Notes: a model not told the origin generated them from the letters alone. A DNA stretch of 5,283 nucleotides from a virus (IMGVR_UViG_2675903509_000008); one strand, 5' to 3'. Positions 2,622-4,550 are shown, counted from the first letter of the stretch. Made by a program: numbers and translations.

Positions 2622-2790
2622 TTTTGGTTCAACTAAATACAACGTCAGTTTTGAAGCATGGCATGAACTGTTAATGGACTATGCAGAGTTACGTGGTGGC
2701 AGTGCTGCTGATGCTGAAGCATGGCGTGATGATTATGAAGCAGGAAAAACTCCGGTCGAAGCATATTGTGATGAGTGGGGCGATGAATGA
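2614..2790 (+). CDS. small acidic hypothetical protein (58 aa), absent from the supplied ORF track
   Basis: ATG 2614 with GAGGAAGAG 2601-2609 upstream. Translates without stops to MADFGSTKYNVSFEAWHELLMDYAELRGGSAADAEAWRDDYEAGKTPVEAYCDEWGDE. It exactly fills the gap between neighbours, with stop/start overlaps at both ends (ATGA at 2787-2790). Confidence 0.6.
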   Translation: MADFGSTKYNVSFEAWHELLMDYAELRGGSAADAEAWRDDYEAGKTPVEAYCDEWGDE

Positions 2791-3302
2791 GCGAGATTAA
2801 TTATCAGGAAGGGCATGAAACGGCAGGGCAGGCAAAAACAGTGGCATGGCGATATCGCTACGTGAAAAAAGACGTTACAGACTTTCAGGGGAAGCCGTGG
2901 GCTGGTGACTGGAAATATGTACCGACAAAAGAGGATTGTAACGACAGGCCGAACTATGAAATTCAGGCCTTATTCATCGGCCCGCCAGTCCCGGTGACAT
3001 CAGAAGGACTGGTTAAAGCCGTGCGCTTTTATGAACAGGTAAAGCGTGAGAATCCGCCAGTCGAAACAGGAGCATGGAAGGATGCTGTTGACCGGGTGCT
3101 CAGAGAGGCCTGCTGCGCTGCCATTCTGGGTAAAGCCGACAATCCACCAGCATCCGGCAATCAGGTTAGCGAATTAACAATGTGGGTTAAACGACTGGTC
3201 AGTCAACTGAAAAAAGCTCAGCCGGACTGCAAATTACCGGAGAAGGCGATGGATTACCTGAAACGAAATGGACTGATAAGCGTGGAGGATGTTTTACGAT
3301 GA
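2787..3302 (+). CDS. phage hypothetical protein (171 aa)
   Basis: ATG 2787 overlapping the upstream stop; long stop-free frame with E. coli-like codon usage; stop TGA 3300-3302. Confidence 0.8.
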   Translation: MSEINYQEGHETAGQAKTVAWRYRYVKKDVTDFQGKPWAGDWKYVPTKEDCNDRPNYEIQALFIGPPVPVTSEGLVKAVRFYEQVKRENPPVETGAWKDAVDRVLREACCAAILGKADNPPASGNQVSELTMWVKRLVSQLKKAQPDCKLPEKAMDYLKRNGLISVEDVLR

Positions 3303-3422
3303 ATATTTAGACTAAAGAGTTTGTAACGCTATGTAAGTGATTTTTTCTGGTTTAGATATTTATATGTCCGGCCAAATTGAGGTGTGTTTAAATGTTATTG
3401 CACATTGATTGTAGGGGGAATA

Positions 3423-3602
3423 ATGAAAAACGCATTGCAGTTTTTGTTTGTTGCGTTCTGGTTGTTCGCATCATGTATGCCCATCATCTTCACAGCAAGG
3501 TATATGGAAAAAATTGATGTTTTGATATTAATGTTTGGACATATAAATGCCCTTTTTTTAGGGGTGTTCATGGCGGTCATGTGCATTGAATACTGGCGGT
3601 AA
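3423..3602 (+). CDS. small hydrophobic membrane protein, two predicted transmembrane helices (59 aa), in an AT-rich insert
   Basis: ATG 3423 preceded by AGGGGG 3413-3418; the track's GTG 3384 start lacks an SD. Two hydrophobic stretches (ALQFLFVAFWLFASCMPIIF and IDVLILMFGHINALFLGVFMAVMCI). Rare codons (tta, ttg, ata, agg) and visibly lower G+C than the flanks. Confidence 0.55.
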   Translation: MKNALQFLFVAFWLFASCMPIIFTARYMEKIDVLILMFGHINALFLGVFMAVMCIEYWR

Positions 3603-3657
3603 ATACAGCGAACGCCATTGGTTTAGTTGGATATTTACTGTGCCGGACAAAAACGGT

Positions 3658-3685
3658 TTGCGGGGAAATCTTAGTTAAGTAGAAT
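3658..3685 (+). promoter_or_regulatory. candidate sigma70 promoter for the hok transcript
   Basis: -35 TTGCGG 3658-3663, 16-bp spacer, -10 TAGAAT 3680-3685. The predicted start near 3692 would give a transcript of roughly 420 nt to the terminator, similar to known hok mRNAs. Confidence 0.35.
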
Positions 3686-3744
3686 AACTGCGGGTGCTTG
3701 AGGCTATCTGTCTCAGGCATGAACACCAAAAGGCAGATAGAGAA

Positions 3745-3812
3745 AAGCCCCAGTTAACATTACGCGTCCTGCAAGACGCTTAACATTAATCTGAGGCCAT
3801 ATCTATGCGACA
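3745..3812 (-). ncRNA. candidate Sok-like antisense RNA against the mok/hok leader
   Basis: On the minus strand: -35 TTGACC (complement of + 3842-3847), 18-bp spacer, -10 TAATCT (complement of + 3818-3823). A transcript starting near 3811 would be antisense to the mok-like start codon (3805) and its GAGG (3793-3796). The 3' end is not defined; a GCGTC/GACGC hairpin (+ 3764-3779) lacks a U-tract. Confidence 0.3.
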
Positions 3813-3864
3813 CATAGAGATTAGCCTCTTACGGACCGAAAGGTCAAGGAGAAGCAGGCTATGA
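3805..3864 (+). CDS. mok-like leader ORF (19 codons), translationally coupled to hok
   Basis: ATG 3805 with GAGG 3793-3796 at 8-nt spacing; translates MRHIEISLLRTERSRRSRL; its TGA 3862-3864 overlaps the hok ATG 3861-3863 (ATGA). Confidence 0.4.
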   Translation: MRHIEISLLRTERSRRSRL

Positions 3865-4016
3865 AGCAGCAAAAGGCGATGTTAATCGCCCTGATCGTCA
3901 TCTGTTTAACCGTCATAGTGACGGCACTGGTAACGAGGAAAGACCTCTGCGAGGTACGAATCCGAACCGGCCAGACGGAGGTCGCTGTCTTCACAGCTTA
4001 CGAACCTGAGGAGTAA
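3861..4016 (+). CDS. hokD: Hok-family type I toxin (HokD/RelF-like, 51 aa)
   Basis: AAGGAG 3846-3851 at 9-nt spacing to ATG 3861. Translation MKQQKAMLIALIVICLTVIVTALVTRKDLCEVRIRTGQTEVAVFTAYEPEE matches the Hok family signature and, from memory, HokD/RelF over its full length. Confidence 0.9.
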   Translation: MKQQKAMLIALIVICLTVIVTALVTRKDLCEVRIRTGQTEVAVFTAYEPEE

Positions 4017-4084
4017 GAGACCCGGCGAGGGAGAAATCCCTCGCCACCTCTGATGTGGCAGGCATTCTCAACGCACCCGCACTT

Positions 4085-4115
4085 AACCCGCTTCGGCGGG
4101 TTTTTGTTTTTATTT
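4085..4115 (+). terminator. rho-independent terminator of the hok transcript
   Basis: Stem AACCCGC (4085-4091) / GCGGGTT (4096-4102) around a TTCG loop, followed by TTTGTTTTTATTTT. Confidence 0.7.
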
Positions 4116-4154: not shown

Positions 4155-4232
4155 CAAAAATACTTAAGTAGCGCGCAGGGATAAGAGGGATGGTCCCTTA
4201 AAGGGGAGAGCTAATTATCCGGAAGGATTCTG

Positions 4233-4484
4233 ATGATGAACATCGAAGAACTGCGTAAAATTTTTTGTGAAGATGGCCTCTATGCTGTGTGCGTTGAAAA
4301 TGGAAATATTGTTAGTCATTACCGCATTGTGTGTTTGCAAAAAAATGGGGCTGCGTTAATTAATTTTGTGGATGCCCGAGTGACGGACGGATTTATCTTG
4401 CGCGACGGTGAGTTTGTCACTTCATTACAGGTATTGAAAGAGATCGGAATAAAAGCTGGCTTTTCTGCTTTTTCAGAAGAATAA
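4233..4484 (+). CDS. rem: Rem-like small protein (83 aa)
   Basis: ATGATG start at 4233 with GGAAGGA 4221-4227. 83 aa (MMNIEELRKIFCEDGLYAVCVENGN...), the same length as K-12 Rem, and immediately downstream of a hokD-type gene as in the Qin prophage. Identity is from memory and synteny, not a search. Confidence 0.75.
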   Translation: MMNIEELRKIFCEDGLYAVCVENGNIVSHYRIVCLQKNGAALINFVDARVTDGFILRDGEFVTSLQVLKEIGIKAGFSAFSEE

Positions 4485-4550
4485 ACTCATCTACAATCTT
4501 GCGCGGGGCTGAACTCCCGCTGAGTAACACCGTGCCACCGGAGAAAACCG

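Follow-up and report, generated by a model that had tools for sequence, protein, structure and literature searches.

Lambdoid phages carry morons, or accessory cassettes, of which lambda bor and lom and HK97 gene 15 are examples. Other small membrane proteins are of comparable kind: the two-helix membrane toxins GhoT and OrtT of E. coli, each of 57 amino acids (aa), the Hok/Gef toxins, the class II holins and pinholins (S21 68), and the small envelope proteins of superinfection exclusion, T4 Imm, HK97 gp15 and the lipoproteins phi80 Cor and T5 Llp. Here we analyse a stretch of viral DNA of 5,283 nucleotides (nt), IMGVR_UViG_2675903509_000008, hereafter the window, which corresponds to the early-right (nin-like) part of an E. 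coli lambdoid prophage of Rac/Qin type. In it, an AT-rich insert directly upstream of a hok/sok toxin-antitoxin locus holds a 59-codon open reading frame (ORF) on the + strand (3423–3602), which we call ORF59. The best explanation, and probably the right one, is that ORF59 is a genuine gene for a 59-residue inner-membrane protein, an accessory function carried in an exchangeable cassette; that it is a real gene and that its product is a membrane protein we hold with high confidence.

How does ORF59 compare with the described systems? Like the lambdoid morons, it is a short gene that some prophages carry, while close relatives with both flanks either lack it or have other sequence in its place, with a product that is a predicted envelope protein and presumably dispensable for phage growth. 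Unlike them, it has no detected promoter or terminator of its own, stands in line with the early operon, has ordinary base composition at synonymous sites and shows no homology to any named moron. It nearly equals GhoT and OrtT in length and shares their two hydrophobic helices and predicted inner-membrane location, but no sequence relationship appears at E ≤ 1 in Pfam, which has a GhoT/OrtT model, and ORF59 has no adjacent small ORF, or GhoS-like partner. Hok/Gef proteins are likewise small, hydrophobic and prophage-borne, and one is encoded at the same locus. Hok, however, has one transmembrane helix with a periplasmic tail and is under mok/sok/fbi RNA control, whereas ORF59 has two helices and no detected RNA element, and does not match the Hok/Gef model (PF01848) at E ≤ 1 in the same scan that scored the neighbouring hok at 1.2e-23. 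With the superinfection-exclusion proteins ORF59 shares tiny size, a phage origin and an envelope destination, and in a conserved lipobox-like motif it recalls the lipoproteins Cor and Llp, but searches of PHROGs and PADLOC showed no similarity, and a structure search of BFVD gave no fold neighbour. Its two predicted transmembrane helices and glycine-zipper-like small-residue face recall class II holins and pinholins; unlike holin genes, it belongs to the early/nin region and precedes rusA and Q, instead of standing in a lysis cassette after Q, and it lacks a charged C-terminal tail, a dual-start motif and any holin family match. A u-spanin (lipobox plus C-terminal helix) was dropped as a candidate, since the linker of ~14 residues is far too short for the periplasm and the gene is outside the lysis cassette. 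ORF59 is a family-less small phage accessory membrane protein of a familiar kind.

Conservation of the ORF59 reading frame

ORF59 is the only long + strand ORF within the AT-rich stretch. We sought relatives with HMMER, searching 1.84 billion representative proteins exhaustively, and with a profile search. The HMMER search returned near-identical E. coli and Shigella sequences (clade A) together with one second clade (clade B: P0037, P0042, P0060); neither search gave a third clade, and what remained were truncated or fused fragments. The clade B protein also has 59 aa, is 44% identical and aligns without gaps from Met1 to Arg59, through a C-terminal E-x-W-R (EYWR in ORF59). At the DNA level the clades are 59% identical with the same start, stop and length, and third codon positions diverge most (34, 41 and 29 of 59 identical at positions 1, 2 and 3). 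The proportions of nonsynonymous and synonymous differences (pN and pS) are 0.34 and 0.70 between clades, a rate ratio (dN/dS) of ~0.23 after correction, and the other five frames contain stops in clade B, with pN at or above pS or nearly so. No indel is required within ORF59, whereas several are needed in the leader and the trailer. In shuffled sequence an open 59-codon frame arises by chance in 1.6% (clade A) and 0.6% (clade B) of cases, and within clade A the ORF is intact at 196 of 197 loci and truncated at one.

A Shine-Dalgarno-like G run (3414–3418) ends 4 nt ahead of the ATG; in clade B, where the leader aligns to that of clade A only with several indels, AGGGA stands 6 nt ahead. Because the frame is conserved in clade B, the other frames are closed, the ORF is free of indels and a Shine-Dalgarno-like motif precedes it in both clades, the + strand ORF59 is, on this comparative evidence, very probably a protein-coding gene. 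A 72-aa version extended to an upstream GTG, found in some GenBank records, was ruled out: clade B has no such extension, and the Shine-Dalgarno motif precedes the ATG. The G5 run is itself variable, with six G in up to 3 of 34 alleles (the extra base aligned at 3417, 3418 or 3419), which shifts the likely Shine-Dalgarno-to-start spacing by one base.

The product has a grand average of hydropathy (GRAVY) of 1.2 and hydrophobic segments at residues ~4–24 and 33–55, and AlphaFold2, run on a seven-sequence alignment, folds it as a helical hairpin (helices 2–27 and 30–58) with a mean predicted local distance difference test (pLDDT) score of 75. The initial annotation had read the frame as a 59-aa protein of two hydrophobic helices directly upstream of hok, and both the conserved frame and the predicted hairpin bear this out, as do the Rfam and Pfam assignments of hok/sok for its position. 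Residues invariant across both clades fall into a helix 1 cluster (W13, S17-C18, P20-I21-I22, T24) and a helix 2 cluster (F38-G39, N42-A43-L44, G47), to which L36, E56 and W58-R59 are added.

The S17-C18 pair, constant in all full-length variants found, ends a lipobox-like L-F-A-S-C18. Residues 8–18 (LFVAFWLFASC in clade A, LCISIWIVISC in clade B) match a PROSITE-type lipoprotein pattern ([LVI..][ASTVI][GAS]C, Cys at 15–35, N-terminal positive residue), the positive residues being K2 in one clade and R2-K3 in the other. The motif might direct lipid modification and cleavage at Cys18, which would leave a 42-residue lipid-anchored single-pass protein; we regard this as a real but less likely possibility. 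The residues that follow Cys18 (MPIIFT) are hydrophobic, unlike those of typical mature lipoproteins, which argues for an ordinary transmembrane helix, and the lipobox-like motif may simply be part of it.

Clade B provides a separate view of the gene. It is present as a single copy in 1,045 of 5,426 complete genomes, including Nissle, the ST131 strain EC958 and 83972, in a decayed prophage remnant of ~1.8 kb at the Rac attachment site between ttcA and uspF. In Nissle the remnant occupies 6163–7748 of locus L088, and EC958 and other strains of that group have the same arrangement. After ttcA come an integrase fragment and a DUF1627 fragment, then ~1.2 kb without annotation in which the ORF lies, and then a hok 3' fragment, a frameshifted metal-transporter gene (ABC permease), uspF and ompN. 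The ORF is the sole intact phage gene remaining, and it is intact in all eight haplotypes although the rest of the remnant consists of pseudogenes. These haplotypes have 42 variable sites over 1,400 nt, of which two fall in the ORF against 5.4 expected (P = 0.09); no other site varies within a 311-nt stretch around the ORF, for which the nominal P is 0.005, the stretch having been picked post hoc. The low variation is suggestive of constraint. The hok fragment of the remnant is ~80% identical to hok in the window and the end of the gene finishing in '...EDVLR*', which precedes the ORF59 stretch in the window, is still recognisable. Thus, the adjacency of the ORF and hok is older than the divergence of the two clades.

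Clade A, in lambdoid prophages, is carried by about a third of E. coli genomes: 1,585 of 5,426 complete ones have 3303–3691 at ≥95% identity. In CFT073 (NZ_CP051263.1) the clade A copy is at ~1346108–1346287, flanked by HGG68_RS25130 and hokD, and a clade B copy is found, for example, on the complementary strand of NZ_CP148105.1 at ~2672449–2672628. A scan of one genome per species found the ORF59 stretch in two Shigella flexneri records only, and a tblastn search of 50,697 phage records gave three carriers.

An exchangeable cassette between the early operon and hok/sok

Low guanine-plus-cytosine content (G+C) first set the stretch apart. G+C in 3303–3620 is 0.362 versus 0.491 for the whole window and ~0.50 for each flank, 2.3 standard deviations under the sliding-window mean (binomial z = −4.6), so the dip described in the initial annotation is real; the stretch is among the lowest 318-nt segments of the window, the minimum being 0.346 at 3254–3571. 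Further dips occur at 2325–2642 (0.377) and 4183–4500 (0.403), and the window is therefore a mosaic in which this dip is not unique. By codon position the G+C of ORF59 is 0.34, 0.29 and 0.525, versus 0.605, 0.40 and 0.48 in neighbouring genes, and T fills 52.5% of its second positions. Overall G+C is thus low (0.36–0.38 versus 0.49 for the surroundings) yet G+C at third positions (GC3) is ordinary, so that the dip over ORF59 reflects a hydrophobic protein and not foreign composition; the sole part that is AT-rich in its own right is the 120-nt spacer 3303–3422 (0.317). Rare codons, which had been thought distinctive of the gene, make up 11.9% of ORF59 and 1.7–12.7% of its neighbours, and the claim falls.

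By the limits of homology to its relatives, the ORF59 stretch is an exchangeable cassette of ~365 bp, from 3303 to ~3670. It fills a slot that runs from the stop codon of the upstream early gene to the hok/sok promoter in Rac/Qin-like lambdoid prophages of E. coli and Shigella. On the left, the upstream gene ends in an ATGA stop/start overlap. In relatives, a 27-aa hydrophobic ORF (M[TI]WPEAF...CRWG), with alleles reading '...gaggatgttttacgATGACCTGG...', begins at this overlap; in the window just two codons and a stop follow the ATG, and homology to the relatives with the 27-aa ORF stops there. Related loci are homologous to the window from 3137, 3156 or 3222, inside the last codons of the upstream gene. 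On the right, HannyBb, Tritos and the Rac prophage of strain 442/2 are homologous to the window only from ~3668–3673, with hok identities of 94–96% in HannyBb and Tritos and of 82% over a longer stretch in Rac 442/2. Rac 442/2 also matches 3258–3302, and all three carry other sequence between the junctions. Thus, the unit extends from just after the ATGA overlap to just before the hok −10, beyond the right edge at 3620 that the G+C dip had indicated. The idea of a horizontally acquired moron survives in so far as the cassette is present or replaced among prophages sharing its flanks; it does not in so far as no promoter or terminator of its own was found for the gene, and base composition points both ways, overall G+C being low and GC3 ordinary. 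Prophages that lack the insert carry other sequence in the slot, and since the ORF–hok linkage predates divergence to 59% DNA identity, the insert is not recent.

What else occupies the slot? In viral contigs, the 400 nt upstream of the hok leader come in ~20 cassette types, many with other tiny hydrophobic ORFs. The 27-aa peptide family (MTWPEAFTTVGIAMAVALVVYSICRWG; for example at loci L262, L223 and L235, and in 933W, NC_000924.1, at 58832–58909 on the minus strand) has coding signatures of its own, namely many synonymous alleles, pS of 0.70 versus pN of 0.24 and 20, 22 and 11 identities by codon position, and it is often coupled through ATGA to the '...EDVLR*' gene before it, starting in some alleles at the overlap itself. 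Phage records with this family number 93; in 933W-like Shiga toxin phages it adjoins hokW, and elsewhere DUF551/Ea22-type genes. Because it is also found beside the latter, what the small hydrophobic genes are linked to may be the upstream gene family or the slot no less than hok. A second, unannotated family of single-helix peptides of 29–34 aa (MLVLKCTLAIVAVMAIYCLVIVLMDHLSD / ...GALAVIAVVGVYCLVVFLMDRLGN; ...YCLxxxLMDxLxx) is present in 42 viral contigs, has a strong Shine-Dalgarno sequence and a GTG or ATG start, ends 26–60 nt short of the hok −10 and is without a match among known families; examples are HannyBb (locus L091, ~2371–2460), Tritos (L093, same slot), L235 and L232. Peptides of both families, in 933W-like and Tritos/HannyBb-like phages, share with ORF59 the slot, the orientation, tiny size and hydrophobicity, but they have one helix where ORF59 has two, are unrelated in sequence and, in the case of the 27-aa gene, are ATGA-coupled to the upstream gene where ORF59 has a 120-nt leader.

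The cassette also seems to be an insertion hot spot. An insertion sequence (IS) of ~1.26 kb lies directly after the ORF59 stop in L028 (3193–4457, corresponding to ~3612–3615 of the window), another follows the hok leader in PhiR42_1 (L002, 3683–4996), and truncated ORF59 fusion proteins (P0026–P0035) point to more insertions or rearrangements inside the ORF.

Candidate roles and competing readings

In an intact prophage, ORF59 would most likely be expressed on induction or infection as part of the rightward early (nin-region) transcript, with its own Shine-Dalgarno sequence for translation. All genes of the window, ORF59 included, are transcribed rightward. A crude consensus scan of 3303–3690 found no sigma-70 promoter, although weak or non-sigma-70 promoters could escape it, and no terminator was detected there. 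Read-through expression is argued for because neither element was found and because the 27-aa ORF, a sister gene from another cassette, is translationally coupled by ATGA to the gene upstream; this coupling in relatives shows that early-operon expression extends to the slot. The product would insert as a helical hairpin with both termini inside and the loop outside, a topology we favour since the N-termini are positive (K2 or R2-K3) and the clade B loop is acidic (SEYLTEAS). Small-residue faces with the spacing of G39-A43-G47 serve helix packing or oligomerisation, and this conserved face of helix 2 might do so here. The protein would then be a dispensable envelope-acting accessory, and not a core phage function, that either hampers entry by other phages or disturbs the membrane as the phage develops. 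An exclusion-type or membrane-perturbing activity is the most likely class, and our computations do not separate the two; exclusion taken alone is a tentative suggestion. Superinfection exclusion, abortive infection and toxin activity, all proposed in the initial annotation, are guesses, with no homology support in Pfam, PHROGs, NCBIfam, PADLOC or the fold search.

Alternatively, ORF59 could be a small pore-forming or depolarising membrane toxin, by analogy with GhoT/OrtT or with type I toxins, silenced in the lysogen either by an RNA or by H-NS bound to the AT-rich leader; together with Hok it would furnish a pair of killing peptides that serve post-segregational killing or abortive infection. 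Its size, its two hydrophobic helices, the G39-A43-G47 face and the adjacency to hok all suit a toxin, and an unannotated, AT-rich, intergenic-looking locus is typical of type I systems. We nevertheless consider a toxin unlikely. At E ≤ 1 no toxin family in the Pfam library matches, Hok/Gef included, and there is no adjacent antitoxin ORF. No Rfam family, antisense RNAs included, matches in 3303–3690, folding of 3303–3700 is not better than that of shuffles (z = −1.07), and no convergent promoter was found, although a novel antisense RNA could escape the Rfam search. Moreover, the clade B copy stays intact in all eight haplotypes of a decayed remnant with no obvious regulator and with hok destroyed, which an unrestrained toxin would hardly allow.

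Two broader scenarios we regard as long shots. Slot peptides of at least three unrelated families might act with Hok as a membrane-acting module, in which they would, for example, gate or prime Hok-mediated depolarisation in induction or abortive infection; or the clade B copy might have been domesticated as a host membrane factor, in which case phylogroup-B2-type E. coli (Nissle, ST131, 83972) would be using the only intact gene of the remnant at ttcA.

A direct partnership with Hok we judge improbable. ORF59 and the other slot peptides would then modulate Hok, as membrane antidote, as helper or through read-through transcription of hok in lytic growth, and cassette and hok/sok would form one unit. 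The adjacency of ORF and hok in both clades, despite only 59% DNA identity, speaks for such a unit, and so does the finding that, in viral contigs, a short hydrophobic ORF lies within 300 nt upstream of most such hok loci, the ORFs coming from at least three unrelated families; the hok −35 comes from the cassette, and no terminator separates ORF59 from hok. However, clade B keeps the ORF while hok is reduced to a 3' fragment, only 3 of the 110 phage records with this hok carry ORF59, and the 27-aa family also occurs away from hok. Adjacency in mosaic phages is weak evidence.

Several observations weigh against reading ORF59 as a conserved membrane protein gene. (i) All nine variable ORF sites within clade A are nonsynonymous (A16V, M28I, I31V, M37I, H40Y, A43V, V48G, V52G, M53T), as are the two in clade B, a total of 11 of 11 with a probability under neutrality of 0.02–0.09. 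Relaxed selection, or slightly deleterious variants of recent origin, would account for this better than strong constraint. Young nonsynonymous polymorphisms are in excess among close strains, and the pattern may reflect such an excess, relaxed selection or diversifying selection. (ii) The contrast between codon positions 2 and 3 reaches only p = 0.04 in Fisher's test, and T-rich sequence yields hydrophobic ORFs by default. (iii) Disrupted alleles exist, some interrupted by an IS and others frameshifted to T6 at the T7 run within the ORF (protein clusters P0020, P0023, P0025); the T6 allele is in 1 of 80 viral contigs among the matches listed. (iv) RefSeq annotation by the Prokaryotic Genome Annotation Pipeline (PGAP) places no gene under the match in 60 of 60 sampled rows of the 1,585 carriers, the clade B region is likewise unannotated in all 30 records sampled of 1,045 and in the RefSeq records fetched, and no convincing promoter was found in the clade B remnant, where the upstream operon is gone. 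(v) Searches of Pfam, NCBIfam, PADLOC and PHROGs, the last extended to E ≤ 10, gave no usable match for ORF59 or clade B. At E ≤ 1 ORF59 has no match in Pfam or PADLOC; apart from DUF4212 (E = 0.07), Pfam gave nothing for ORF59 or P0037, and apart from phrog_6298 (E = 0.12, two members) no PHROG matched. The AlphaFold2 hairpin has no fold neighbour in BFVD below E = 0.7, all matches being uncharacterised hairpins. The peptide sequences appear in none of the papers searched, and the Pro-SMP finder study mentions, among the proteins considered here, only HokC and HokD (PMC10903887).

Could the stretch then be an AT-rich non-coding spacer, bound by H-NS or serving as a recombination linker, with the frame a T-rich by-product kept by linkage to hok? 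Besides the silence of PGAP in every sampled record, the missing promoter and the wholly nonsynonymous ORF polymorphism, the modest difference in clade A variability leans this way, with 0.10 and 0.067 variable sites per nt in the spacers versus 0.05 in the ORF. A non-coding spacer is nonetheless hard to credit, since frame, start, stop and length are kept across 41% DNA divergence with third positions diverging most, since the spacers and not the ORF have acquired indels, and since only one frame of six is open in both clades; shuffles give an open frame of this length in 0.6–1.6% of cases.

A gene on the minus strand deserves almost no credence and was ruled out in favour of the + strand ORF that the initial annotation had preferred: the minus-strand ORF is open in the window and its 83-aa version is called in three deposited phage annotations, but clade B has two in-frame stops in it, pN equals pS (0.41 and 0.41) and its only family match is a sub-threshold one to DUF5445 (E = 0.6).

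If ORF59 is an accessory membrane protein gene, as we think, it is a tangible example of the "missing small membrane proteome" among strains of clinical importance: carriers include CFT073, Nissle 1917, ST131 EC958, ATCC 25922 and Shigella flexneri, and the three phage records that annotate the locus do so on the wrong strand. The value of the finding is the correction of this annotation together with a recurrent small-peptide slot, and not a demonstrated new mechanism. Should it be true that such peptides control phage entry, membrane potential or Hok activity, slots of this kind would be a useful hunting ground for phage-host interaction peptides; should they have no phenotype, the corrected annotation is the whole result.

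Neighbouring features and prophage setting

The features in and around the cassette are collected in Table 1. In the window, DUF1627, DUF977, DUF4406 and Ea22-like genes and several small genes without known function precede the ORF59 stretch, and hok/sok, rem, a hypothetical gene and the start of a DUF968 gene follow; in related genomes rusA and Q lie further downstream.

Table 1. Coordinates of features in and around the ORF59 cassette, in window positions
Feature	Position	Strand	Remarks
Upstream early-operon gene	2787..3302	+	171 aa; phrog_660; function not known; its conserved last codons are the left cassette anchor
ATGA stop/start overlap at end of upstream gene	3299..3302	+	Left cassette junction; from window sequence and alleles
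AT-rich spacer, 5' leader of ORF59	3303..3422	+	120 nt; 31.7% G+C
Minus-strand ORF	3395..3586	-	63 aa here; 83 aa in three phage records, as 'hornerin' or 'hypothetical protein'
ORF59	3423..3602	+	59-codon predicted small membrane protein (MKNALQFLFVAFWLFASCMPIIFTARYMEKIDVLILMFGHINALFLGVFMAVMCIEYWR); ATG start
T7 homopolymer within ORF59 (codons 44-46)	3553..3559	+	Site of rare T6 frameshift alleles
Cassette 3' spacer	3603..3670	+	Holds -35 region TTGCGG (3658-3663) of hok promoter
hok -10	3680..3685	+	TAGAAT
hok/sok type I toxin-antitoxin locus	3692..4106	+	Right cassette anchor; Rfam sok 106.7 bits (match 3692-3863); Pfam HOK_GEF 1.2e-23
hok coding sequence	3861..4016	+	
hok terminator	4085..4102	+	

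Between the clades, the first ~40 nt of the cassette 3' spacer form the best-conserved non-coding block. Further along, cassettes bring their own hok −35 (position 3657–3685): TTGCGG here, TTGGCG in HannyBb and Tritos, and no TTG in Rac 442/2. Since the −35 thus comes from the cassette and the −10 belongs to the conserved hok module, the strength of hok transcription may depend on the upstream cassette, both elements having been assigned by eye. At the other end of the locus, Rfam relates the 3' end and terminator of the hok mRNA (4025–4106) to isrK, an Hfq-binding RNA from Salmonella Gifsy-1, at a score below threshold (26.6 bits versus a gathering threshold of 50, E = 0.009); this is probably just a shared terminator-like hairpin.

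The product of the upstream gene has further PHROG matches restricted to its C-terminus (phrog_924, 8171 and 30109). Its last ~27–55 codons (...PDCKLPEKAMDYLKRNGLISVEDVLR) are a module conserved across proteins of PHROGs 660, 924, 8171 and 30109, common to otherwise different genes and ending at 3302 in ...EDVLR*. Because the homology breakpoints of relatives fall at 3137, 3156 and 3222, this C-terminal module (3137–3302) looks like a recombination linker inside the gene.

At the left end of the window, 1–84 comes from inside fucP, a core gene; more than 5,000 E. coli genomes have this piece at 100% identity. An N-containing stretch (85–103) connects it to the DUF1627 prophage gene, which lacks its first ~25 nt; in related prophage contigs another gene lies upstream of DUF1627, whose start is intact. 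The fucP/DUF1627 junction either is an artefact of assembly or masking or marks a rearrangement by which the prophage was truncated.

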